Source: Clostridia bacterium
GTDB lineage: Bacteria > Bacillota > Clostridia > Christensenellales > Aristaeellaceae
Direction of reading: 5' to 3'
Assembly: GCA_024404275.1 (NCBI GenBank)
Contig: JAKSQG010000035.1
Coordinates: 1 to 12,353, forward strand
DNA length: 12,353 nucleotides
In this document: positions 1-12,353 of the stretch, piece by piece
Layout: every line of letters begins with the position of its first letter
Position numbering within the stretch: the first letter of the stretch is position 1
Made by a program: the position numbers and the translations under genes
Notes under the pieces: generated by a model
Databases searched by the model: none
What the model was told of the DNA's origin: nothing
What the model saw: only the letters and a program-made list of their open reading frames with translations

Positions 1-49
1 TCATTTCCAAAGGTGAATCTTTTTCACTTTGAAATGGTGCTTTTCCTGT

Positions 50-86
50 AAAAACAGAGGGAATCATGTCAAACATGATTCCCTCT
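50..86 (-). terminator. Rho-independent terminator closing the peptide ABC operon
   Basis: Perfect 13-bp inverted repeat AGAGGGAATCATG (56-68) / CATGATTCCCTCT (74-86) with a 5-nt loop. It begins 6 nt beyond the TAA (93-95) of the ATPase gene on the minus strand and is followed on that strand by a TTTTT run (50-54). Confidence 0.75.
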
Positions 87-92
87 TTATGA

Positions 93-2192
93 TTATTTGT
101 TTTCCTTGGTGAGGTTCTCGCGGTAGCCGTCCAGTTCCTTCTCGTTGCCGTAAACAAAGTGACCGGGCAGGATCTCGCACCAGATGGGCTTATCCACGCT
201 GTAGTCATGCTGCGTGGGATCGTACACCAGCAGCTTCTTGTTGCGCTCGAGGTAGGGATTGGGGTTAGGCACAGCGGAAAGCAGCGCCTGCGTATAGGGA
301 TGCAGCGGATGACGGAAGAGTTCTTCCGCTTCAGCCAGCTCCACGATACGACCCTTGTGGATAACGGCGATACGGTCGGAAATGAAGCGCACCACGCTCA
401 GGTCATGAGCAATGAACAGATAGGTCAGGGAGCGCTTCTTTTTCAGCTCGTTGAGCAGGTTCAGCACCTGCGCGCGGATGGACACGTCCAGAGCGGAGAT
501 GGGCTCGTCCGCCACGATAAATTCAGGCTCCATGATCAGGCTGCGGGCGATACCGATGCGCTGACGCTGACCGCCGCTGAACTCATGCGGGAAACGGCTG
601 GAGAACTCCGGCAGCAGACCTACCTCATCCAGCGCGTGGCTCACCTTCGCGGCGCGCTCGGCCTCATCCTTGTACATGTGATGGTTGATGATGCCTTCGG
701 AAACGATGTAGTCAACCTTGGCACGTTCATTCAGTGAAGCCATGGGATCCTGGAAGATCATCTGGCAGCTGCGGATCACCTTCTTATCCAGTTCCTTGCT
801 GATCTTGCCGCTGATGCGCTCGCCCTTGAACAGCACTTCGCCGCCCGTGACGGGGTTGATACGCACAATGGCACGGCCAATGGTGGTTTTACCGGAGCCG
901 GATTCACCCACCAGAGAGAAAGTCTCGCCGCGGTAGATGGTAAAGTTGACATCGTCCACAGCCACAAACTTCTTCTTGCCGCTGCCAAAGCTGACCTGCA
1001 GGTTCTTGACCTCGATCAGGGGCTCACGGTTGGGATCCTCATGCGGATGCTTCAGTTCCTTGACGTTGCCGAAGTTACCGTTCTGCTGCTCAGCCAGACG
1101 CTTGATGGTGTCGGGCTGATCGATCTGCGGAGCACGCGGGTCCATCAGCCAGGTCTTGGCCTGATGGGTGGGCGTCACGTCATAGTTCGGCGGCTCTTCC
1201 AGGAAGTCGATGTTCAGGGCGTTATGGTTGCGGGGCGCAAAGGAATCGCCCTGGATCTTATTGAACAGGTTCGGAGGGGTACCGTCGATGGCGGGCAGCT
1301 TCTCGCCCTTGATGCCCAGCTGCGGCAGCGCGCTGAGCAGCGCCCAGGTGTAGGGATGGCGGGGATCGAAGAAGACTTCGTTCGCCAGACCGGTCTCAAT
1401 GATCTGACCGGCATACATGACCGCCACACGGTCCGCCACATTGGCCACCACACCCAGGACATGGGTGATGTAAATGATGGTCATATGGTTATCGGCCTGC
1501 AGCTTGCGGATCAGGTCAAGGATCTGCGCCTGAATGGTCACGTCCAGAGCAGTGGTGGGCTCGTCGCAGATCAGAATCTGCGGCTTGCAGGCCACGGCGA
1601 TGGCGATAACGGCTCTCTGGCGCATGCCGCCGGAGAACTCATGCGGATACTGCTTATAGCGCTTCTCGGGGAAAGGAATGCCCACCTCGCCCAGCAGACG
1701 GATGGTTTCCTCCTTGGCGGCCTTGCCGTGCAGACCCTGATTGAGTTCCACAGCTTCCTGAATCTGCTTACCGACCGTTTTGAGGGGGTTCAGGCTGGTC
1801 ATGGGGTCCTGCGTCACCATGGCGATGCGCTTGCCGCGGATGCCCTGCCATTCCTTTTCAGTGGTCAGCTTGGTCAGGTCGATACCGTCATACATGATGG
1901 AGCCGTTGGCGATGCGACCATTTTTATCCAGCATGCCCACGAACAATTTGGTAAATACGCTCTTACCGGAACCGGATTCACCTACGATAGCCAGCGTCTC
2001 GCCTTCATAAAGATCCAGAGAGCATCCGCGGATGGCCTTCAGTTTCTGGCCGCGCAGGGTGAATTCAACCTCCACGTCCTTGGCGGAAAGCAGCGGCTCG
2101 CTGGACAGCATCTGACGGCTCAGCTCTTCAAAGCGGGACGCAGTCTTCGCGTTTGAACCGGCTTGTTTGCTTGAAATGATTCTTTCGCTCAT
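93..2192 (-). CDS. Fused tandem ABC ATPase of an Opp/Dpp-type peptide importer (OppD-OppF fusion, GsiA-like architecture)
   Basis: 699-aa ORF with ATG start, TAA stop, and GGAGG 6 nt upstream of the start. Two complete nucleotide-binding domains: Walker A GESGSGKS and GESGSGKT, signatures FSGGMRQR and FSGGQRQR, Walker [13 protein letters not shown] and [13 protein letters not shown]-loops ITH and IAH. Both halves carry the oligopeptide-type C-terminal HPYT motif ([25 protein letters not shown]). Confidence 0.93.
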
Positions 2193-2204
2193 AAGCTGCC
2201 TCCT

Positions 2205-3275
2205 TTATCTGTGATTCCTGGGGTCGCACGCGTCAGAGAAGGCGTTGCCCACGAGGTAGAAAGTAATGGTGATAACGGATACAATGGCGGCCGGGAAGAT
2301 CAGAATGTAGGGATAGCTCATAAACAGGGAGCGGGCATTTCTGAGCAGAATGCCCAGAGAAGGCGTTTCCACACTGATCAGGCCCAGGTAAGCCAGAGTG
2401 GTCTCGTAAGCGATGGTGCCGGGGATGGCCAGGGCCAGGCGCAGCACGACCACGCTGATGAGGTACGGGAAAATGTTCTTCCACAGCGTGCGGGGCAGCG
2501 AGGTGCCCAGGCAGCGGGAAGCCAGGTTGTACTCACGGTCACGATACATGAACACCAGGTTACGCACGTTGCGGGCGGTGCCCAGCCAGCCGAAGGCGAT
2601 GAGCGCGCCGCCGATGACAAGGTAGGATTTACCGATCATCAGGGCAATCAGCGTCATGTAAATGATGGTGGGAATGTTATCGATCAGGTTGTACAGCTCG
2701 GTCATGGGGCGGTCCAGCTTGCGCACATAGCCCCACAGCAGACCCATCACCGTACCCAGCAGAATCTGACCGCCGGCAACGCTGATGGCCAGCAGGATGG
2801 ACAGGCGGGTGGCGTACCACACCTGGCACCAGTAGTCAGCGCCCAGAGAGTCGGTACCAAACCAGTAATCGGAGTTGGGAGCGATAAACGCGTTCTTGGT
2901 GTCATAGCGCAGGGCGGTAACATCGTATCTGCTGATGAGCGGCGCCACAAAGGTGAACACAAACAGCAGCACGAACACGATCAGCATAACGACGGCGCTC
3001 TTCTTTTTCAAGAAGTTCTGCCACACGCTCTTCCAGTAGGAGTACTGGCTGTAGCCGGTGCGCTCAGCATCCTGATAGTGATACTCCGCACGGGCAAACA
3101 GCTGATCTTCCGGCAGTTCGGAGCGTTTTTTCACGTGCGGACGGCCTTTTTCAAACACCTTTTCATCCGTGTTGAACTTATTGGGATCGGGACCGTCAAT
3201 AACGGCATCGCGGTTACCATTTTCGGGGTTGATGCCCTTGACAACGATATCCTTGAATGTTTTCTTGTTCGACAT
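2205..3275 (-). CDS. Opp/Dpp-type ABC permease, OppC-like subunit
   Basis: 356-aa ORF with TAA stop. Its start lies 1 nt after the upstream permease stop (TGA-T-ATG) and is preceded by GGGAGG. It has the OppC_N-like SYWKSVWQNFLKKK segment before TM1, multiple hydrophobic helices, and a typical BPD-transporter C-terminal half. The N-terminal cytoplasmic tail is about 55 aa longer than in E. coli OppC. Confidence 0.88.
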   Translation of the reverse strand: MSNKKTFKDIVVKGINPENGNRDAVIDGPDPNKFNTDEKVFEKGRPHVKKRSELPEDQLFARAEYHYQDAERTGYSQYSYWKSVWQNFLKKKSAVVMLIVFVLLFVFTFVAPLISRYDVTALRYDTKNAFIAPNSDYWFGTDSLGADYWCQVWYATRLSILLAISVAGGQILLGTVMGLLWGYVRKLDRPMTELYNLIDNIPTIIYMTLIALMIGKSYLVIGGALIAFGWLGTARNVRNLVFMYRDREYNLASRCLGTSLPRTLWKNIFPYLISVVVLRLALAIPGTIAYETTLAYLGLISVETPSLGILLRNARSLFMSYPYILIFPAAIVSVITITFYLVGNAFSDACDPRNHR

Positions 3276-3276
3276 A

Positions 3277-4686
3277 TCAGCGGGTACCTCCCTTCTTGGT
3301 CAGGCTGATTCTGGGATCCAGCACGCCCATGAGCAGGTCGCCCAGGAAAGTACCGATGATGCCCATCGCGGCATAGAACAGTACGATCGCCTGTACCAGG
3401 TTGGTATCATAGCGGGAAATGGCCAGCGTCAGCAGGGGGCCCATACCGGGAACGGAGAAGAAGCTTTCCGCCAGCAGGGAGCCGCCCACCGTCAGCAGGA
3501 TGTTGTAGGGCAGGTACTGTGCCAGAGGCAGGAAGGCGTTTTTCATCACGTGACGGAACATGACCTGCGTGGTGGTCAGACCTTTCAGCTGTGCCAGACG
3601 GATGTAATCCTTGTTGAGTTCATCCACCATGTAGCGGCGCATCCACAGCATATAGGAAGCAATGGAGCCCATCGCCAGACACAGGATCGGCGGAATGGAG
3701 GATTCCAGCGGCGTTGCCGCACGGTAGGTCATGGGCAGCTTGAACAGTGCGGCGCAGACATACATGATCAGCGTATAGCTGACCAGATGCGGCACGGCGT
3801 TGACAAAGATGGTGTAACCGGTACCAATCTGATCCAGCAAACCACCCTTGAAGCGTGCCTGCAGGATACCCAGCACAACGCCTACCACCAGGGCCAGTGC
3901 CAGAGAGCACAGACCCAGCACCATGGAGACGGGGAATTTTTCCATGATGACCTTGATGACCGACACACCGTGCTGAATGCGGTAGCTGTCACCCAGGGAG
4001 AAATGCAGCGTATAGTTGAAAGGATTGAGGTGGTTCAGCACATTGGCAAAACCGGAAGTACTGGTGGTAAGTGTCATTCCTTTCACTTTCGCGCCGATCT
4101 CGGTACGGATGTTTTCATTCAGGGTCGCGGTGAACGCTTCGGCAATATCGTTGCCGCAGGCCTTCTTGGCATCCTTGAGCAAAGTGCCCAGCGCCTTATC
4201 GGCGCACTGGCTGTACACAGACTCCAGAATGGCCGCGTCATCCGCGTCCTTTATTGCAAGCGCCGACGCGGTGATGCGTTCCACAACCGTCTGCGTCAGC
4301 ACCTTATCATTCATCTTTGTAATTTCCTTGGCAGCGGCATCCGAATCGGTATAATACTGGTTGATGGTCTTTTCCACCGCGGTGTGAAGTCCATCCACTG
4401 CGCCGGCGGCAAGCTCCACGCTGATGCGCGCCGACTGAGCGCTGTCATAGGTATATTCGATGCGGAACATTTGCGCATAGAAATTTTTCAGCTGAACAAA
4501 GGGATTATCCAGCAGACCGGCAGAGTTCAGCTTATCGATTTTCTGCGAGTCGGTCAGCTTGATCAGTTCATCTTCGGTGAAGAAATAATCGGTGGGCATC
4601 AGTCTCATCAGCAGAAATACCACGCTGACAATAACAAACAGCGTGATAAGAGACTGAAGCATTCTTTTGAGAATGTATTTGATCAT
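3277..4686 (-). CDS. Opp/Dpp-type ABC permease, OppB-like subunit with an enlarged first external loop
   Basis: 469-aa ORF with TGA stop and GAAGGAG 8 nt upstream of ATG. The N-terminus MIKYILKRMLQSLITLFVIVSVVFLLMRLMP is collinear with OppB/DppB. The GDxxxS-type motif (FSLGDSYRI) and the conserved permease core (IRLAQLKGL, LLAESFFSVPGMG) are present. About 150 extra residues (aa 76-228) sit between TM1 and the GD motif. Confidence 0.9.
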   Translation of the reverse strand: MIKYILKRMLQSLITLFVIVSVVFLLMRLMPTDYFFTEDELIKLTDSQKIDKLNSAGLLDNPFVQLKNFYAQMFRIEYTYDSAQSARISVELAAGAVDGLHTAVEKTINQYYTDSDAAAKEITKMNDKVLTQTVVERITASALAIKDADDAAILESVYSQCADKALGTLLKDAKKACGNDIAEAFTATLNENIRTEIGAKVKGMTLTTSTSGFANVLNHLNPFNYTLHFSLGDSYRIQHGVSVIKVIMEKFPVSMVLGLCSLALALVVGVVLGILQARFKGGLLDQIGTGYTIFVNAVPHLVSYTLIMYVCAALFKLPMTYRAATPLESSIPPILCLAMGSIASYMLWMRRYMVDELNKDYIRLAQLKGLTTTQVMFRHVMKNAFLPLAQYLPYNILLTVGGSLLAESFFSVPGMGPLLTLAISRYDTNLVQAIVLFYAAMGIIGTFLGDLLMGVLDPRISLTKKGGTR

Positions 4687-4766
4687 AAGCAGGGCTCCTT
4701 CGAGGTGATTGAGGCACGGGAAGAGCAGTCAACGCTTCTGCCTGCTATTCAATAAAAATGACTTGT

Positions 4767-4802
4767 GGCAGACGGCTCTCCCTTGTGGGAAAGCCGTCTG
4801 CC
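4767..4802 (-). terminator. Intra-operon stem-loop after the binding-protein gene (partial terminator or mRNA stabiliser)
   Basis: GGCAGACGGCT (4767-4777) pairs with AGCCGTCTGCC (4792-4802), and inner TCCC/GGGA pairing extends the stem. It lies 32 nt downstream of the SBP stop on the minus strand. The T-run (TTTTT) is displaced about 9 nt from the stem, so it is not a canonical strong terminator. Confidence 0.5.
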
Positions 4803-4834
4803 GTACGCAGTAAGGTTATTCGCTTAAGAAGGGA

Positions 4835-6739
4835 TTATTCCGCAGCTTCGTAAGCAGCCTTGAAGGCTTCGTATTCAGCGGTGGTGTACAGCTCGGTGCT
4901 GGTCTCCCAGTTCTCGTAGCGATAAGCGGAAATGCCGTAAGCAGCATAGATCTTGGTGTAGTCATTGACCTTGGTCAGCTGCCAGGACACATCGATGTAG
5001 CAGGGGATGGTCAGGGCATGAGCCACGAAGTAGGCTTCGGCCTTGGCGAAGGCATCATAGCGGGCATCCAGATCAGTGGTGATGTCGCGGCCTTCGGCAA
5101 CCATGGCGGTGTACTCTTCATAGGTGGCGATCAGGGCGGCGGCGGTGGGATCATCGGCGCGCTCATTGATCTTGGAGTAGCTCACAGAGTAGTAAGCGTT
5201 GTCCTCACCGTAGGTCTCCTGACCAACGAAGTTGACGGGATCGCCGAAGTCAGCGCCCCAACCGTTGATGTAGAAGGAAGCATAGGAGGGCTTACGGACT
5301 TCATTGGCCAGAGAAGAAACGTAGGTCTGGATGGTGAAGTTGATGTAATCCTCACCCAGGCAATCGGCGAAGATCTGCTGCAGCACCTTGGCGGTCTCGG
5401 CAGCGGTGGTGGAGGAACCGGAGATGTAGTAGCGAACTTCGATGGGGAAGCTCACGCCCAGAGCGGTCAGCTCTTCCATGGCCTGAGCCTTGTACTGAGC
5501 AGCCAGTTCGGGGTTGACACGAGCAGTGGTGTTCTCTTCGCCCAGGTAGGAAGCGACCATGTTGGCATAGTCCACACCCTGGCTGTTAACAGCAACGCCC
5601 AGACCGGTGTAGGTGTAGTTCTCGCACTTCTGGGGGTTGATGGGGTTGGTGCGCTCCAGGTACTTGGTCAGATCCAGGCCGTGCAGCCAGGACATACGGA
5701 AGGCCTCGTTCGCAATGGCGGTGTTCCAAGCGGTATCGGGGGTGTTGTCCAGGTTGTTGACGTTGTAGCACAGGTGCATCTGGTAGGAGTACTTGGTAGG
5801 ACGGGCTTCCACCAGGTTGTTGTAGTAGGGGTTGTTGGTGTCGTTGTAGATGGTCATCAGCTTGCTCTGGCTCAGAGCGGTGTAATCCAGCTGGCCGTTG
5901 GTGAACAGCTCGTAGGCCTTATCGGCGGATTCAACCATGGTGATGACGACTTCGTCGAACAGGTCGGCGTCTTCGTTCCAGTACAGGGGGTTGCGGGTCA
6001 GGGTCTTTTCAGAGCCGTTGTTGTAGCTGGTCACGGTGTAGGGACCGGAGTACCACAGATCGGCAGGAGACACAGACTGGGTGCCTTCCACGCCCAGCTC
6101 GTCGACCATGCCCTGGGGCAGGGGATACAGGCAAGCATAGGTGCAGACAGAGGCGAAATAGGGGGTGGGAGCGAAGCAGGTGAACTCGAGGGTGTACTCG
6201 TCCAGAGCCTTGATACCGACCTTGGCGAATTCCTCATTGTCATACAGCAGGGCTTCGGCGGCAGCGGTATCGCTCTCGGCCAGGGCCTTGGTGTAGGCAT
6301 AGTAGTCTTCGGTGCCAACCAGAGTCTCAAACAGCATGGAGGTGTTGGTGGCAGCGTTCTTGGCATAGTTCAGGGTCCATTCCACGCCGGTCATCCAGTC
6401 GGCGGTGGTCACGTCGCCCTTGTACTCGCCGTTGGCGTCGACCCAGCTCATATCCTCACGGATCTTGAAGGTCCACACGGTGGCGTCGTCGTTGGAGCTC
6501 CAGCTCTCAGCGGCCAGGCCCACCAGGCTGCCCTGGTTGTTGTTGTAAACCAGACCATCCAGGCAGTTGTTCAGGACGTTCAGTTCCTTGGCGCCCTGAG
6601 ACATCTGGATCAGCCAGTACTCCATTTCGTTCGCGGTGGTCTGATAGTCATGATACACATTCAGCTTTTCAGCGGAGACAACGCCCACGCAGCTGAGGAT
6701 CATGGCCAGAACCAGCACGAGAGAAGCAAACTTCTTCAT
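4835..6739 (-). CDS. Extracellular peptide/solute-binding protein, ABC family 5 (OppA/DppA-like)
   Basis: 634-aa ORF with TAA stop and AGGAGG 8 nt upstream of ATG. The N-terminal signal sequence MKKFASLVLVLAMILSCVGVVSAEK contains either a near-lipobox (ILSC) or a VSA/EK signal peptidase I site. Size, composition and position as first gene of an Opp-type operon fit a family-5 SBP. Confidence 0.85.
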   Translation of the reverse strand: MKKFASLVLVLAMILSCVGVVSAEKLNVYHDYQTTANEMEYWLIQMSQGAKELNVLNNCLDGLVYNNNQGSLVGLAAESWSSNDDATVWTFKIREDMSWVDANGEYKGDVTTADWMTGVEWTLNYAKNAATNTSMLFETLVGTEDYYAYTKALAESDTAAAEALLYDNEEFAKVGIKALDEYTLEFTCFAPTPYFASVCTYACLYPLPQGMVDELGVEGTQSVSPADLWYSGPYTVTSYNNGSEKTLTRNPLYWNEDADLFDEVVITMVESADKAYELFTNGQLDYTALSQSKLMTIYNDTNNPYYNNLVEARPTKYSYQMHLCYNVNNLDNTPDTAWNTAIANEAFRMSWLHGLDLTKYLERTNPINPQKCENYTYTGLGVAVNSQGVDYANMVASYLGEENTTARVNPELAAQYKAQAMEELTALGVSFPIEVRYYISGSSTTAAETAKVLQQIFADCLGEDYINFTIQTYVSSLANEVRKPSYASFYINGWGADFGDPVNFVGQETYGEDNAYYSVSYSKINERADDPTAAALIATYEEYTAMVAEGRDITTDLDARYDAFAKAEAYFVAHALTIPCYIDVSWQLTKVNDYTKIYAAYGISAYRYENWETSTELYTTAEYEAFKAAYEAAE

Positions 6740-6799
6740 AGCAGATTCCTCCTATAGAGAAAAATAGTATTACCACAGAGTATTTCTGTGATAGCGTAA

Positions 6800-6828
6800 A
6801 TTATAAAGAAATTTGCAGTTTTCGTCAA
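6800..6828 (-). promoter_or_regulatory. Sigma-70/SigA-type promoter of the peptide ABC operon
   Basis: On the minus strand: TTGACG (6828-6823), a 17-nt spacer, then TATAAT (6805-6800). This sits about 60 nt upstream of the SBP start codon in AT-rich DNA. Confidence 0.65.
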
Positions 6829-6859
6829 GCATTTTCGCAAAGAGTTCCGTCGAAAATGC
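6829..6859. promoter_or_regulatory. 9-bp perfect inverted repeat abutting the -35 box (candidate regulator site)
   Basis: GCATTTTCG (6829-6837) and CGAAAATGC (6851-6859) are separated by 13 nt. The repeat lies immediately upstream of the -35 hexamer of the opp-type promoter. Confidence 0.4.
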
Positions 6860-6929
6860 CATCCTTTAAGACTTTTGTAATGTTTTTTTGTTGTATATGC
6901 ATTTTTTCAAATGCAATAATCCATACTGC

Positions 6930-6958
6930 TTGTCAAATCCCCCTTTTCAGTGTATGAT
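6930..6958 (+). promoter_or_regulatory. Sigma-70/SigA-type promoter of the membrane-protein/dipeptidase operon
   Basis: TTGTCA (6930-6935), a 17-nt spacer, then TATGAT (6953-6958). These are followed by GGGAGG (6972-6977) and ATG at 6983. Confidence 0.55.
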
Positions 6959-6982
6959 GGAACCGTGTTATGGGAGGTCAGA

Positions 6983-7399
6983 ATGAAAAACAAACTGAAA
7001 GAAAATTTTACCCGTGTGATCATCCGTCCCACCATCTATATGACGCTCACACGCTTTCCCGTTGCCCTGCTCATCGTGCTGCTGGCGGATTTTTTCCTGC
7101 CCACCTCGCTTACCCGCATCAAAACCAACGGCTGCGCCTTCTTCGGCGTGCTGTTTCTGCTGATGGCCTGGGTGGCGTGGCTGCGCATGGACGGCATGCA
7201 TCTTCCCAAGCCCATGATGATGCGCCTTAACCTACGCAAAAAGCCGATGATCTCCTCCTATGGAGATATGATCGACCACATCGATGAGCGCCCCGAAGCC
7301 TTCGAGGACCTTCAGGAGGGCGAAAAAGACGCCTGCTGCCTGATTGCCGACCTCATCTGTGCCGCGGCGATGATCATCATTTCCCTTTATATTGTCTGA
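6983..7399 (+). CDS. Small integral membrane protein of unknown function
   Basis: I trimmed the ORF track entry 6950-7399 to the ATG at 6983. That ATG has GGGAGG 5 nt upstream, whereas the GTG at 6950 lies inside the predicted promoter spacer. The product is 138 aa with a TGA stop. It has three hydrophobic segments (FPVALLIVLLADFFLP, CAFFGVLFLLMAWVAWL, CCLIADLICAAAMIIISLYIV) and an acidic loop. I recognise no family motif. Confidence 0.6.
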   Translation: MKNKLKENFTRVIIRPTIYMTLTRFPVALLIVLLADFFLPTSLTRIKTNGCAFFGVLFLLMAWVAWLRMDGMHLPKPMMMRLNLRKKPMISSYGDMIDHIDERPEAFEDLQEGEKDACCLIADLICAAAMIIISLYIV

Positions 7400-7418
7400 A
7401 AGAGCAGGGTGAAAACGC

Positions 7419-8060
7419 ATGATGTTTTCCAATGACGCCTCCGGATTTGTGTCGCTTTCGCATTTTCTGCCATCGATTCTGTGCGAGATCCGTTATCATT
7501 CTTCCTATAATTTTATAGGCGACCGCATCGACGGCTATGAGGAGCCTTTGGCGCTTGCTACCCGTGAAGCCGCCGAAGCGCTGAAAAAAGCCGCCGCCCT
7601 TGCCGCCGCGAAGGGATATATCTTCAAAGTGTATGATGCCTATCGCCCGCAATGCGCGGTGGATCATTTTGTGCGTTGGGCAGAGGACACCGCCGATACG
7701 CGCATGAAAAGCGTTTTCTATCCCGACGTCAATAAAAAAGACCTGTTTTCACAGGGCTTTATTGCCAGGCACTCCGGTCACAGCCGCGGCAGCACCATCG
7801 ACCTGACGCTGTTTGACATCGCCGCGGGCAAGGAAGTGGATATGGGCGGACCATTCGACTTTTTCGGTCCTCTCTCCCACCCCGATCACACCGAAGGGCT
7901 GACCGGAGAGCAATACAACCACCGTCAGCTGCTGCGCGGCTTCATGCTGGACAGCGGCTTCCGTCCCCTTTCCACCGAGTGGTGGCACTTCACCCTCGAC
8001 AACGAGCCCTATCCTGATACCTATTTCACCTTTCCCGTCCGCATGGATTCATTGAGATAA
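7419..8060 (+). CDS. ddpX: D-alanyl-D-alanine dipeptidase, VanX/DdpX family (M15D zinc peptidase)
   Basis: 213-aa ORF with TAA stop, collinear with VanX over its full length. The substrate-binding Arg context is YDAYRP. The zinc ligands and catalytic residues sit in SGHSRGSTIDLTL (His, Asp) and EWWHF (Glu, His). The C-terminal EPYPDTYFTFPV matches the VanX EPYPNSYFDFPV. Confidence 0.9.
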   Translation: MMFSNDASGFVSLSHFLPSILCEIRYHSSYNFIGDRIDGYEEPLALATREAAEALKKAAALAAAKGYIFKVYDAYRPQCAVDHFVRWAEDTADTRMKSVFYPDVNKKDLFSQGFIARHSGHSRGSTIDLTLFDIAAGKEVDMGGPFDFFGPLSHPDHTEGLTGEQYNHRQLLRGFMLDSGFRPLSTEWWHFTLDNEPYPDTYFTFPVRMDSLR

Positions 8061-8092
8061 TCGGCAAGGGGAACCAATCGCACATAATAATA

Positions 8093-8128
8093 AAGACGAG
8101 CAAGCCTGTTGAAGCTGCTGCCCGTCTT
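8093..8128. terminator. Bidirectional rho-independent terminator between the convergent ddpX-like and trmO genes
   Basis: Imperfect GC-rich stem AAGACGAGCAAGC ... GCTGCTGCCCGTCTT. It is followed by TTTTTGTTTATT on the plus strand and by a T-rich CTTTATTATTAT tract on the minus strand. It sits 5 nt beyond the trmO stop. Confidence 0.6.
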
Positions 8129-8133
8129 TTTGT

Positions 8134-8823
8134 TTATTCATTTTCGACTCTTGTCACCGTCAGAATGCCATTTTCAACGCGGAAGCCAACATCCATTCCC
8201 GCGAAGGACAGACCGTAGACAGTCTCCGGTGCATCCTCATACCCGGGGCGCGGGTCACATGCCAGCACGCCTTTCAAAGCAGAACGCTTCTCCGTCGGCA
8301 CTTTGTCAAGAAGTTCCTGCGGAAACACCACCTGCAGGCGATGCGTACGCGTTTCGGCGGTATACCCCTCCGATGCTTCTGGATGGCAGTCCGCCACGGG
8401 AATATACGGCTTGATATCATAGATGGGGGTGCCGTCCAGCAGGTCCGCACCTGATACTGTCAGCACCGGCGCTTCGGGCGCATCCAGGTCGATGCCCGTC
8501 AGCTTCACACAGGAAAGCCCCAGTCCGTTGGGACGATACGGCGCACGGGAGGCAAACACGCCGACCCTTGTATTTCCGCCAAGGCGCGGCGGGCGCACTG
8601 TGGGACGGAACTCGCTGACGCGGGTCTTTGAAAACTCCCAGATGAGCCACAGATGGCTGAAGCCTTCCAGTCCCCGCACCGCTTCCACACGGCGGAATTC
8701 CGGTTCAAATACGATATACGCCTGCAGTTCACTCACCAGACCGCTTTGCCGCGGAATGCCGAACTTTTGCTTGAAATCCGTATGAATGTAAGCAATGGGG
8801 TGCAGAATATGATTCTCACTCAT
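8134..8823 (-). CDS. trmO: tRNA (N6-threonylcarbamoyladenosine37-N6)-methyltransferase TrmO (TsaA/YaeB family)
   Basis: 229 aa counted from the ATG at 8823 ([29 protein letters not shown]...), which is the typical family N-terminus, with GGAG 7 nt upstream. Contains the DGTPIYDIKPYIP motif. TAA stop. The longer track ORF (to 8922) would overlap ispE by 107 nt and adds only an Arg-rich non-homologous leader. Confidence 0.85.
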   Translation of the reverse strand: MSENHILHPIAYIHTDFKQKFGIPRQSGLVSELQAYIVFEPEFRRVEAVRGLEGFSHLWLIWEFSKTRVSEFRPTVRPPRLGGNTRVGVFASRAPYRPNGLGLSCVKLTGIDLDAPEAPVLTVSGADLLDGTPIYDIKPYIPVADCHPEASEGYTAETRTHRLQVVFPQELLDKVPTEKRSALKGVLACDPRPGYEDAPETVYGLSFAGMDVGFRVENGILTVTRVENE

Positions 8824-9661
8824 AACAGGTCTCCGTTCTGAGCACAACAGGCCACTTGCCCTTGAGTGCTTCCGCCGCCCTATCCGCCGCCGCTGCGCTT
8901 TCAAATACGCCATAGGTGACACTGCCGCTGCCCGTCATGCGGGCAAACAACGCTCCCTGTGCCAGCAGCTCTTTCTGTGCCGCCGCAATGGCGGGCACCA
9001 ACCGCATGGCAGCACCCTGCAGTGAGTTGACCGAGCTTTTTTCCAGCAGCTGCATATCCCCCGTGTCGATCGCCTTCAATACACCAAATGTATCTCCATG
9101 AACCGAAGGCATCGCATCCGATTCACGGAATACCGCCGCCGTGCTCAATTCTTCCCTCGGCTGCAAAAGCACCAGCGGATAGGTACGCCTTCCCCCGATG
9201 GGCGTCAGCTTTTCACCGATGCCCTGCACACGGCACAGACCGCCCTGCAGGCAAAAAGGGATATCCGCCCCCAAGGGCAGCGCCAGTTCTTGCAGCGTTT
9301 CAAGCGGCAAATGAAGCTGCCACAACTGATTCAGCATTTTCAATGCCGCCGCCGCATCCGCGCTTCCGCCGCCCATGCCCGCTCCCGCAGGGATACGCTT
9401 GACCAGCGTCATGGCTGCCCCCTGCTGTACGCCCGCAAACGCTTTCAGACAGCGCGCTGCACGCAGCACCAGATTGTTTTCATCCGCCGCCACCGTATCC
9501 GAACCGCTCAGCGTCAGGCTCAGCGTTTCCGCCTCCTACGCAATCAGCGTATCGGACAGTGTCACGCTCTGCATGACCATGTCCAGCAGATGATAGCCGT
9601 CCTATCGGCGTCCGGTCACCTCCAGCGACCAGTTGATTTTGGCTTTCGCTTCAAGCTTCAT
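8816..9661 (-). CDS. ispE: 4-diphosphocytidyl-2-C-methyl-D-erythritol kinase IspE, interrupted by two in-frame TAG codons (recoded or very recent pseudogene)
   Basis: I joined three track fragments that share one frame: [76 protein letters not shown]...[23 protein letters not shown]...[12 protein letters not shown]. The IspE N-terminal AKINxxLxV...DGYH motif, GHMP ATP loop and C-terminal GSG motif are all present. The total is 281 codons plus a TGA stop, which is a normal IspE length. Confidence 0.85.
9536..9538 (-). other. In-frame TAG, ispE codon 42
   Basis: Coding-strand context CTG ATT GCG TAG GAG GCG GAA ACG. It is in the same frame as codon 20 and as the downstream GHMP motifs. Confidence 0.95.
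9602..9604 (-). other. In-frame TAG, ispE codon 20
   Basis: Coding-strand context GGA CGC CGA TAG GAC GGC TAT CAT. It sits inside the conserved G-x-R-x-DGYH block. Confidence 0.95.
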
Positions 9662-11126
9662 TTTCAATGTGCCGCGGCGGCTCCTTTCCCATATCCAAGG
9701 TAAATTCAAACACGCTGCCCCGGTCCGAGGGAAGCAGCCGCAGCTGATGGCCATGCTTGTCCATGATGCATTTGCAGATGGCCAGCCCCAGACCTGTGCC
9801 CTTGCCCACCGTGTGAGCCTTGTCTGCCTTGTAGAAACGGTCAAAAATGTGCGGGGCGTCCTATGGCGCAATGCCCGGTCCGTTATCCGCCACCGTCACA
9901 TGGATCAGCTTGTTTTCCATACGGGTCGCAAGGGTGATTTTTCCGCCTTCCTGCGTATACTTGACCGCATTGCTGAGCAGATTGGTCAGCACCTGATAGA
10001 TCTGTTCCGCATCGGCATGCGCATACATGGGATCGCTGCCGAAGTTCAATTCGACCTCCATGTTTTTTTCATCCAGCTGCGTCATATTGGCAATGATGAC
10101 GCGGCGAATGCTTTCATGGATGTCAAAATCACTCAGTGCCAGCTCGGTAGTACCGTTCTCCATGCGGGAAAGATTCAGCAGGTTGCCCACCAGACGGGAA
10201 AGCCGTTTGGTCTCGTCCAGCACGATCTGCATATACCGTTCCTGCTCCTCACGGTCGATGGTGCCATCCGCCATGCACTGCAGGTAACCCTGAATGCTGG
10301 TCATGGGCGAGCGAAGCTCATGCGATACATTGGCGATAAAATCCTTGCGTGTCTGCTCCAGTTCATCCAACTGCGCAGCCATAATATTAAAGGCATGTGC
10401 CAGTTCCCGGGTCTCCAAACTGCCGCTCTCGGGAACACGGCGGCCGAAACGCCCCTCCGCCATCTCGCGGGAGACCGCCGCCATCTGCTTGAGCGGGCGG
10501 ATCATGGGTCGTGTGATGAGCAGCACGACCAGTGCCGAACAGATCATCACGATCAGGGCCGCAAGCACCACCTGCCAGATAAGGGAATGAAAACCGCTGT
10601 AAACCGTCTGTGCCGCAGTCTGTACAAATACAGCCCCCAGCACCGTGCCATTATCGATCCAGGGCACCGCCACCGTAAACATAGGGCCCGATTCACTCTG
10701 GACGCTGGTCACGATCTCCTGTCCGGTCAGCACCTGACGCAGCGTACTGATCACCAGTTCGCGGTCAAAATCGACCATTTCGGTCTAAAGCATGTCCGGG
10801 GTGATGTACACTGTGGTCTGCCCTGTGCGGTCCACCACCACGGCGTAAGCGGAAAAGTCCTCATAAATACGGTTGACTTTCCATTTGATATATTCCGTTG
10901 TCGTGTTAACATGCAGAACACGTTCTGCCACCAAATTGTTGCGCACACGGCTGGCCATATAGGCCAGGTCATACGCCTGCACCTTCAATTCCTGCATGCG
11001 GGTGGAGATATAGTTGCTGCGCGACGCATACCAGAAGATGCTGACCAGTGACAACACACATACCAGGATCACCGCCAGCACCACGGTCATCAGCCGCACA
11101 TACATGCCGTTCCATCTTTTTTTCAT
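9651..11126 (-). CDS. Membrane sensor histidine kinase (HAMP-HisKA-HATPase_c), interrupted by two in-frame TAG codons
   Basis: One frame runs from ATG 11126 to TGA 9651-9653, giving 491 codons. Elements in order: TM1 ([24 protein letters not shown]), external domain, TM2 ([23 protein letters not shown]), HAMP ([18 protein letters not shown]), H-box [20 protein letters not shown]-box [10 protein letters not shown]1 [25 protein letters not shown]2 [15 protein letters not shown]. The TAGs are at codons 114 and 422. Confidence 0.85.
9861..9863 (-). other. In-frame TAG, histidine kinase codon 422
   Basis: Coding-strand context GGC ATT GCG CCA TAG GAC GCC CCG CAC ATT TTT. It lies between the G1 box (DNGPGI) and the F/G2 boxes of the ATPase domain. 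Confidence 0.95.
10785..10787 (-). other. In-frame TAG, histidine kinase codon 114
   Basis: Coding-strand context CCG GAC ATG CTT TAG ACC GAA ATG GTC. It lies in the predicted external sensor domain between TM1 and TM2. Confidence 0.95.
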
Positions 11127-11815
11127 TTTACTTCAAATTTGTAGCCGACACTCCACACCGTACGAATCTGCCAGCCATATTCCTCACAGCCGATCAGCTT
11201 TTCCCTCAGACGTTTGATGTGCACATCCACCGTGCGGCTATCGCCGAAAAAGTCAAAGCCCCATACCTGCTCCAGCAGCTGCTCACGCGTAAACACACGG
11301 TTCTGATGGGAAGCAAGGAAGTACAATACCTCCAGCTCCTTGGGCGGCATTTCGACGGCTTTTCCCTGATAATATACCTCGTACTTTTCCAGGCTCACCG
11401 TCAGCCCCGGGAAGGAGAGGGTGTTCTTTTCGCCCTCGCTCGGCATCGTACGGCGCAGCACCGCCTTGACGCGGGCAGCCAGCTCCTTGTTGTCAAAGGG
11501 CTTGGTGATATAGTCATCCGCGCCCAGTTCCAAACCCAGTACCTTGTCAAAGGTCTCTCCCTTCGCAGTCAGCATGATAATGGGAATCTGTGAGATCTGA
11601 CGCACCGAACGGCACACCTGCCAGCCGTCCATGCCGGGCATCATGATATCCAGAATCATCATTTGCGGCGGATTCTGGCGGAATGCCTCCAGCGCGGTAT
11701 CACCGCGGCTGAAGGTCTGCACCTCGTAGCCTTCTTTTTTCAGGCACAGTTCCACAAGGCCCGCAATATTGGGGTCATCATCCACTACCATGATGAAGCT
11801 TTTTTCATTCGCCAT
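11123..11815 (-). CDS. OmpR/PhoB-family response regulator
   Basis: 230-aa ORF with GGGAGGG 7 nt upstream of ATG. The receiver domain has VVDDD, MILDIMMPGMDG (phospho-Asp) and LTAKG. The winged-helix DNA-binding C-terminus has TVDVHIKRLREKL and TVWSVGYKF. The TGA stop overlaps the kinase start (ATGA). Confidence 0.92.
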   Translation of the reverse strand: MANEKSFIMVVDDDPNIAGLVELCLKKEGYEVQTFSRGDTALEAFRQNPPQMMILDIMMPGMDGWQVCRSVRQISQIPIIMLTAKGETFDKVLGLELGADDYITKPFDNKELAARVKAVLRRTMPSEGEKNTLSFPGLTVSLEKYEVYYQGKAVEMPPKELEVLYFLASHQNRVFTREQLLEQVWGFDFFGDSRTVDVHIKRLREKLIGCEEYGWQIRTVWSVGYKFEVK

Positions 11816-11834
11816 ATCGTTACCCTCCCTTTTC

Positions 11835-12353
11835 TTATTTCAGGGTCACAATGGTCACGCCGTCCTCGCCCTCGCCGTACTGGCCCAGTCGGAAAGACCT
11901 GACCTGAGGATTCATTTTCAAATGCCGCTGGATGCCGCTGCGCAGCACACCCATGCCCTTTCCGTGCACGATTCCGACCTCGCCGAGACCTGCCAGGATG
12001 GCTTCGTCCAGATACTGGTCCACTTCCATCAGTGCTTCCTCCAGGCTCATGCCGCGCACATCGCATTCCATGTGTACCGTACGGCTTGCGGCGCCCGTGT
12101 GGACCATGACGGCGCTCTTTTTCTTCTTGGCTTCGCTCTTCTTTTCCTGCACGGGCCGCAGCTGGCTCAGGTTGGCTTTAAGTTTCAGTATGCCTGCCTG
12201 CACCTGCACATCGCCGTTGGCGTCGGGCTTGCTGAGCACGGTGCCGCGGGTGTTGAGGTGCAGGATATCCACGGTATCCCCCACGTTCAGCGTCTTGGGT
12301 GCCTGTGTCAGGGTCTGCGTACCCTGAATGCCCTCTGCCACGCTGTCGGCGCT
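11835..12353 (-). CDS. mutS2: Endonuclease MutS2, C-terminal portion with Smr domain (5' end lies outside the window)
   Basis: The frame is open to the window edge and ends in a TAA stop. The KOW-like segment VGDTVDILHLNTRGTVL is followed by the Smr domain: CDVRGMSLEEALMEVDQYLDEAILAGLGEVGIVHGKGMGVLRSGIQRHLKMNPQVRSFRLG...GVTIVTLK. Confidence 0.85.
   Translation of the reverse strand, partial: SADSVAEGIQGTQTLTQAPKTLNVGDTVDILHLNTRGTVLSKPDANGDVQVQAGILKLKANLSQLRPVQEKKSEAKKKKSAVMVHTGAASRTVHMECDVRGMSLEEALMEVDQYLDEAILAGLGEVGIVHGKGMGVLRSGIQRHLKMNPQVRSFRLGQYGEGEDGVTIVTLK

Follow-up and report, generated by a model that had tools for sequence, protein, structure and literature searches.

Does a bacterial chromosome use the amber codon UAG for a standard amino acid? 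The question is raised by a contig from a gut Clostridia bacterium of the family Aristaeellaceae (JAKSQG010000035.1, assembly GCA_024404275.1), of which positions 1 to 12,353 were analysed and are called the window here. Two adjacent genes of the window, ispE and a gene for a sensor histidine kinase (HK), are each interrupted twice by an in-frame TAG. An earlier reading of the DNA, made from the letters alone (the sequence-only reading), proposed that UAG encodes an amino acid in the host, with glutamate (Glu) or glutamine (Gln) as leading guesses. The comparison with related loci described below bears this out, in that the lineage to which the window belongs has 16 distinct in-frame TAG sites in genes under selection, and where strains vary these TAGs mostly exchange with Glu codons. 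With a probability that we put at about 0.8, UAG is a rare sense codon read as Glu in a genus-level clade of gut Clostridia.

The minus strand of the window from 8134 to 12353 carries a tightly packed gene string, mutS2 (3' part)-RR-HK-ispE-trmO, in which RR encodes an OmpR-type response regulator (Table 1). As the sequence-only reading had reported, the four TAGs lie in codons 20 and 42 of ispE and codons 114 and 422 of the kinase gene; both frames are free of TAA, TGA and frameshifts, and reading through the TAGs gives products of 281 and 491 amino acids. The gene overlaps that it described are likewise intact (RR TGA and kinase ATG at 11126-11123, kinase and ispE at 9661-9651, ispE and trmO at 8823-8816). 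When Glu is placed at the TAG codons, the IspE protein matches two NCBIfam equivalog profiles, NF011202 with 240.7 bits (cutoff 204; residues 3-271) and TIGR00154 with 210.5 bits (cutoff 138.7); each match spans both TAGs, and together they cover residues 2-271. The kinase has the Pfam domains HAMP (residues 203-254), HisKA (260-325) and HATPase_c (372-479) in this order, with TAG422 inside the last of them, and the RR gene overlaps the start of the kinase gene. The NCBI annotation of the metagenome-assembled genome (MAG) GCA_024500545.1 gives only the last 225 amino acids of IspE (MCQ2453635.1) and divides the kinase into three fragments, the N-terminal one being a hypothetical protein (MJ136_03565). 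None of the 11 genes of the window ends in TAG, the stops being TAA in six and TGA in five.

Related loci (L-numbers below, with W for the window; sources in Table 1) were retrieved by exact look-up of the RR protein, which is identical in three other assemblies, and then of cluster members. In-frame TAGs recur in at least 10 independent assemblies, with two NCBI MAGs, six Logan run assemblies and one ENA assembly among the sources. Nucleotide identity between the lineage sequences is 87-97%, and by this measure they therefore stand for several strains or species. TAG422 of the kinase (HK422; sites are named by gene and codon from here on) is fixed in all eight lineage sequences that cover it. 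The other TAGs of the window are kept in some strains and are GAG in others, and linked synonymous differences covary with them. At ispE20, W, L097, L098 and L099 have TAG, in each case preceded by CGA, and L001, L085 and L100 have GAG, in each case preceded by CGG. The ispE42 codon is TAG in W, L001 and L097-99, GAG in L085 and GAA in L100. At HK114, W, L001 and L097-99 have TAG and L085 has GAG, within flanks that are identical for 21 nt on each side (45-nt contexts). The strain haplotypes and the identical HK114 flanks therefore rule out any assembly or base-calling artefact tied to a sequence motif, and an artefact arising at a modification motif, which was also considered, is ruled out by the presence of both TAG and GAG in identical flanks. 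Assembly or base-call errors, which the sequence-only reading had named as a threat to its proposal, thus do not account for the amber codons: the in-frame TAGs are real and inherited.

The 16 sites are spread over 11 genes in about 55 kb of lineage sequence, a count reached by walking along a 44-kb contig and two further 11-kb contigs. A restriction of TAG use to the mutS2-kinase-ispE operon, as the first 20 kb had suggested, is refuted by the sites in ylxQ, truB, vanY, murJ and the genes for an M42 peptidase, a ROK kinase and a TPR protein. On the 44-kb contig, all four TAGs that the gene finder called as stops run on in frame into conserved sequence. VanY continues past its TAG as E*KKDITGFEAEAWHIRYVG (here and below the asterisk is the in-frame stop codon), and YlxQ has a normal length of about 100 amino acids when its TAG is read through. 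The 34 curated genes of this contig, with 11,652 codons, contain 9 TAG, 390 GAG, 414 GAA and 384 CAG codons and end in TAA (22 genes) or TGA (12 genes), with no TAG stop among them. In the lineage as a whole, whose G+C content is 55-58%, TAG makes up about 0.08% of all codons and about 1% of Glu codons.

Which amino acid is meant can be read from the codons with which TAG alternates. At the 13 sites that vary between strains, the alternative is GAG or GAA in 11, AAG in one (M42-287) and CAG in one (ROK87). Given that 21.6% of the sense codons one step away from TAG in these genes are GAG, the probability of at least 11 Glu partners among 13 is 2.4e-6. The lineage alignments give the same direction when counted by column: GAG changes to TAG in seven columns, to CAG in one and to AAG in about three, and a G-to-T change at the first base of GAG therefore acts as a silent one, neither missense nor nonsense. 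A comparison of the TAG columns with 80 more distant metagenome loci sharing the gene order shows Glu in 25 of 34 relatives at MutS2-131, in 38 of 59 at HK422 (where the nearest relatives all have GAG) and in 17 of 28 at ispE42. The ispE20 column has Glu in 10 of 28, followed by Ala or Pro; MutS2-721 has Asp in 41 and Glu in 12; and the HK114 column is variable. Outside this operon, M42-24 belongs to an SG-x-E motif with Glu in all five PDB homologue alignments shown, and TruB208 is Glu in E. coli and in the sister locus L088, with variable columns in homologues for M42-287, M42-336 and VanY392. Between the two leading guesses of the sequence-only reading the choice thus falls on Glu, given the partners at the variable sites and the conserved Glu columns. 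Taken together, the strain and column comparisons show UAG to be translated, the residue that they predict being Glu or a functional equivalent.

The reading frames on either side of the TAGs are under selection. Counting codon differences between the window and L001 as synonymous/non-synonymous gives 59/14 for the kinase gene, 32/15 for ispE, 34/2 for the available part of mutS2 and 18/0 for RR. When the genes are split at their TAGs, the counts are 10/1 for kinase codons 423-491, 20/0 for mutS2 codons 722-788 and 5/1 for ispE codons 1-41. Judged by such counts, purifying selection holds in every TAG-bounded segment. The excess of synonymous changes on either side of every TAG, together with the fixation of TAG422, sets these genes apart from plain nonsense pseudogenes, the outcome that the sequence-only reading had held against its own proposal.

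Outside the lineage the trait disappears. Across 86 loci of relatives (L004-L083 and L087-L092, with genes called by a simple codon-statistics caller), neither these genes nor their neighbours contain an internal TAG, and every candidate is a true gene boundary; the MutS2 of one relative, for example, ends ...VTLK-TAG and is followed in frame by the RR gene. TAG is a stop in 33 of the 465 genes called in these relatives (7.1%); for the nearest sister clade the figure is 2 of 81. All clade strains that cover the sites have the trait, and it is absent from L088 (83% nucleotide identity), from L004-8 (78% MutS2 identity) and from 80 further loci. The closest full-length MutS2 in a large protein database has 78% identity, and that search exposed no fragments from the lineage. 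On this distribution, the trait marks a narrow, rarely sampled, genus-level clade of uncultured gut Clostridia. TAG stops are rare across the family, and codon capture would therefore have been cheap.

How might UAG have come to mean Glu? In the mechanism that we propose, UAG would be read by a tRNA with anticodon CUA, which probably would derive from tRNA-Glu(CUC) through a single C-to-A change at anticodon position 36, or alternatively from a tRNA-Gln(CUG) that escapes GatCAB. Glutamyl-tRNA synthetase (GluRS) would charge this tRNA with Glu. The GluRS of Bacillota is non-discriminating and accepts both YUC (Glu) and YUG (Gln) anticodons; it should therefore tolerate a change at position 36, and Glu would be the natural meaning for a CUA tRNA. 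To our knowledge, Bacillota have no glutaminyl-tRNA synthetase. Release factor 1 (RF1) would be lost or outcompeted, at a capture cost lowered by the few TAG stops of the family, and decoding might still depend on context, with a reassignment that is perhaps young or incomplete. The strongest form of this proposal, in which the natural reassignment of UAG to Glu is complete, RF1 has disappeared and the non-discriminating GluRS charges a tRNA-Glu(CUA) devoted to this codon, is tentative, and we give it slightly less than even odds.

Several observations weigh against the Glu reading or against its complete form. The expected tRNA did not turn up: ARAGORN finds no tRNA of any kind in the approximately 55 kb of lineage sequence, comprising the window and every lineage locus. 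A search of the window, L085 and L086 at Rfam gathering thresholds gave no match, and a scan of viral contigs for a tRNA-Glu-like anticodon arm with CUA (CCGCCCTCTAACGGCGG) gave three matches, none of them a tRNA. For RF1, a tblastn search with the E. coli protein against 826 kb that do not take in the prfA locus of the lineage gave matches in two distant relatives, L081 and L082, and nowhere else; prfA stands there in a rho-rpmE-DUF1385-prmC-prfA cluster (L081:15399-20656). Stop-codon usage was considered as proof of RF1 loss and is insufficient, the family background being just 7% TAG; at so low a background the lack of TAG stops in the 34 genes is therefore suggestive, not significant (P = 0.08). 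The two non-Glu partners, CAG at ROK87 and AAG at M42-287 (in L086), are the only ones of their kind. They could be real nonsense alleles, or else variable positions at which Glu has replaced Gln and Lys, respectively. The M42 gene of L104 contains an in-frame TAA (1788-1790, HVRP*LAYV) at a position that is AAC in L086. Either the gene is genuinely knocked out in this strain or the Logan unitig is in error; not every in-frame stop of the clade is a recoded TAG. Finally, the next codon is GAN, for Asp or Glu, after 10 of the 16 TAGs, compared with 15% of GAG codons (P = 1.8e-5), a bias that a simple complete reassignment does not predict. The sequence-only reading had pointed out that two of its sites are followed by GAC, and these prove to be part of this significant bias.

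This context bias leads to the rival that survives best, which is itself a variant of the Glu reading. RF1 may be intact and UAG have a dual meaning, with a chromosomal amber-suppressor tRNA-Glu competing with termination and TAG being kept only in good 3' contexts and in weakly expressed genes. A purine follows 14 of the 16 TAGs, compared with 62% of GAG codons (P = 0.027), and amber suppression has a classical 3'-purine context effect in the same direction. The position of the TAGs before purines, mostly in GAN codons, therefore suggests context-dependent decoding, and the purine preference suggests that decoding competes with RF1 or with slow selection of the tRNA; the context may instead be mutational, from GAGGA to TAGGA. 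The rarity of TAG among Glu codons would also fit a dual meaning, as would the lack of TAG in the 12 most strongly codon-biased genes, including those for IF2 and NusA and the oligopeptide transporter (opp) operon, although this is a weak trend (P = 0.09) and the codon-bias score was partly trained on the genes that it scored. On the other hand, genes with two or three TAGs, such as ispE in the window and the M42 gene in L086, would yield little full-length product if termination competed well, TAG422 is stably fixed, and the 34 curated genes have no genuine TAG stop, non-significant as that count is. On balance we consider such a dual meaning unlikely, but a serious competitor all the same.

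Far less probable is that UAG is read through with another residue, be it Gln, Tyr, Lys or Trp inserted by a near-cognate tRNA, or pyrrolysine, and that the TAGs persist because they lie at tolerant positions. Near-cognate read-through of UAG classically inserts Gln, Tyr, Lys or Trp, and the CAG and AAG partners at ROK87 and M42-287 fit this idea, as do the variable columns at HK114, M42-336 and VanY392. However, insertion of Gln predicts mostly CAG partners, since C and T exchange by transition and CAG is about as frequent as GAG in these genes (384 and 390 codons), whereas just one partner in 13 is CAG and 11 are Glu codons. Moreover, TAG occurs at strictly conserved Glu columns, namely in the M42 SG-x-E motif, in the GxGIxxE motif of the kinase and at MutS2-131. 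Pyrrolysine is unsupported: the TAGs lie in housekeeping genes such as ispE, truB, mutS2 and murJ, at Glu columns, and not in methylamine methyltransferases, although no genome-wide search for pyl genes was made.

We regard it as very improbable that the genes are nonsense pseudogenes, or split genes with working fragments, in a decaying lineage. The NCBI annotation does treat them as fragments, the TAA in the M42 gene of L104 would suit decay, and in-frame stops conserved between species are known in bacteria (PMC7918605). Yet purifying selection acts on either side of each TAG, and TAG422 is kept by every strain despite nucleotide divergence of 6-13%. The interruptions are TAG only, with TGA never, TAA once and no frameshift, and random nonsense mutations would not favour Glu codons. 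The products would also suffer: truncation at codon 57 would deprive IspE of the N-terminal region that binds its substrate, and a cut at codon 422 would remove the ATP-binding boxes of the kinase. The weakest alternative, a systematic G-to-T miscall at, for instance, a modified or damaged G, could draw on the fact that every change turns the first base of GAG from G to T, mostly in the context GAGGA, but it is extremely improbable in view of the at least 10 assemblies, made in several projects and with several assemblers, the identical 45-nt HK114 contexts, the haplotype linkage of CGA-TAG versus CGG-GAG, and the restriction to in-frame GAG codons, to whose frame an artefact would be blind.

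Table 1. Genes and TAG sites of the window, further TAG sites of the lineage, and sources of the related loci. Positions refer to the window unless a locus number precedes them; an asterisk marks the TAG codon.
Feature	Position	Strand	Details
trmO	8134-8823	-	No TAG; last of the overlapping RR-HK-ispE-trmO string
ispE (CDP-ME kinase)	8816-9661	-	281 codons with TAG read through; NF011202 and TIGR00154 matches
ispE codon 42 TAG, TLIA*EAE	9536-9538	-	Strain comparison; TAG-GAN pair 9533-9538
ispE codon 20 TAG, GRR*DGYH	9602-9604	-	Strain comparison; TAG-GAN pair 9599-9604
Sensor histidine kinase, HAMP-HisKA-HATPase_c	9651-11126	-	491 codons with TAG read through
Kinase codon 422 TAG, GPGIAP*DAPHIF, in ATP-binding domain	9861-9863	-	Strain comparison; TAG-GAN pair 9858-9863
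Kinase codon 114 TAG, PDML*TEM	10785-10787	-	Strain comparison
OmpR-type response regulator	11123-11815	-	No TAG; anchor for related loci
mutS2 3' part (Smr domain)	11835-12353	-	Extends beyond contig end
mutS2 GAG (Glu) codon, MSL-E-EAL	12039-12041	-	TAG here in L001 and L085
ylxQ			TAG codon 69
truB			TAG codons 194, 208
mutS2			TAG codons 131, 721
kinase			TAG codons 114, 422
ispE			TAG codons 20, 42
M42 peptidase			TAG codons 24, 287, 336
vanY			TAG codon 392
murJ			TAG codon 129
ROK kinase	L105:9352-9354		TAG codon 87
TPR protein			TAG codon 183
L001, L093, L104			Logan SRR27361835
L002			Logan SRR21151038
L084			Logan SRR21150928
L096, L098			Logan SRR21150819
L100			Logan SRR28408152
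L099			Logan ERR6929691
L097, L105			ENA ERZ27247129
L003, L085, L086			44,352-bp contig JAZRWA010000062.1 of MAG GCA_045599485.1, GTDB species representative

Some neighbouring features of the lineage deserve mention in their own right. The opp operon occupies positions 93-6739 of the window on the minus strand and encodes a fused double-ATPase OppDF (699 amino acids), two permeases and a 634-amino-acid binding protein; no other part of the region is as strongly biased in its codon use, and the operon is TAG-free. Upstream of a gene for a VanX-type M15 dipeptidase lies a small conserved open reading frame (ORF) for a membrane protein of 138-149 amino acids with no Pfam match (window 6950-7399, plus strand; L086:18113-18529). 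L001 differs from the window between trmO and vanX, where about 1.4 kb is present in L001 only (L001:4940-6350 compared with window 8062-8118) and carries an HTH_26 regulator and a 141-amino-acid ORF; the difference is an insertion or deletion specific to the strain. An AT-rich ORF (third-position G+C, GC3, of 0.45) of 219 amino acids on the minus strand of L085 (11571-12230), with a faint match to phage Mu F-like proteins, is probably a mobile-element remnant; it lies between the genes for a HAD hydrolase and a PPIase, and the sister clade differs there.

As far as we know, UAG as a bacterial sense codon is otherwise confined to pyrrolysine and to phages. All the bacterial code changes known to the Codetta screen reassign UGA (PMC8629427), and a k-mer screen of 2.7 million assemblies from 2026 contains no bacterial UAG-to-sense case and deems stop-codon calls prone to contamination. 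Isolated cases of conserved in-frame TAG/CAG in bacteria have been described by Belinky et al. 2021 (PMC7918605). Our full-text searches turned up no account of a bacterial chromosome that uses UAG for Glu or for any other canonical amino acid.

The clade resembles several known systems and differs from each of them. The UGA reassignments of table 4 (Trp; Mycoplasmatales, some endosymbionts and recently Eggerthellaceae) and table 25 (Gly; Absconditabacteria and Gracilibacteria) are likewise clade-wide changes from stop to sense in which annotation splits genes. The codon here is UAG, read by RF1, and not UGA, read by RF2, its predicted meaning is Glu, its use is very low and varies between strains, and the G+C content of 55-58% is not that of an AT-rich or reduced genome. 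Peritrich ciliates (table 30) and Blastocrithidia (table 31) share Glu as the new meaning, through suppressors derived from tRNA-Glu; those are eukaryotes with eRF1 in which UAA and UAG have changed together, whereas the present clade has RF1 and RF2 to consider and TAA as its main terminator (22 of 34 genes). TAG-recoded gut phages (table 15-like; crAss-like, Lak and others) also have in-frame TAGs in the gut environment and read them with a suppressor tRNA-CUA, but theirs is usually TAG-to-Gln in hosts with the standard code, while the TAGs described here lie in the chromosomal nusA-infB operon, truB, mutS2, ispE and murJ. Pyrrolysine (pylTSBCD; some Bacillota and Deltaproteobacteria) is a bacterial UAG sense meaning with a dedicated CUA tRNA as reader, and it occupies catalytic sites of methylamine methyltransferases, in contrast to the ordinary Glu positions, unrelated housekeeping proteins and GAG swaps of this clade. 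In E. coli, supE and strain C321.deltaA show that a tRNA with a CUA anticodon reads UAG, that this depends on 3' context and that cells can do without RF1 when they have few TAG stops; those strains were selected or engineered, and supE inserts Gln, whereas here a natural lineage has UAG in essential genes. The cases of Belinky et al. (PMC7918605) come close in that an in-frame TAG is under purifying selection and is a sense codon in some strains, but they concern single genes in scattered species, with TAG/CAG as an example and no consistent amino acid or clade-wide pattern.

If the reassignment of UAG to Glu is complete in this clade, it would be the first bacterial code in which UAG stands for a canonical amino acid, and a new translation table would be needed. 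In these MAGs, essential genes are broken up by PGAP and Prodigal, which distorts completeness estimates and pathway calls. A natural pair of GluRS and tRNA-Glu(CUA), and possibly a translation apparatus free of RF1, would, if present, be of interest for genetic code expansion. Among phages in such a host, types that use TAG as a stop and types that have recoded it would fare oppositely. For the bacterium itself, a reassignment would have been caught early, at ordinary G+C content and with TAG/GAG polymorphism still segregating, and the alternation of TAG and GAG between strains of a free-living gut bacterium would provide a live test of code evolution, setting codon-capture against ambiguous-intermediate models.

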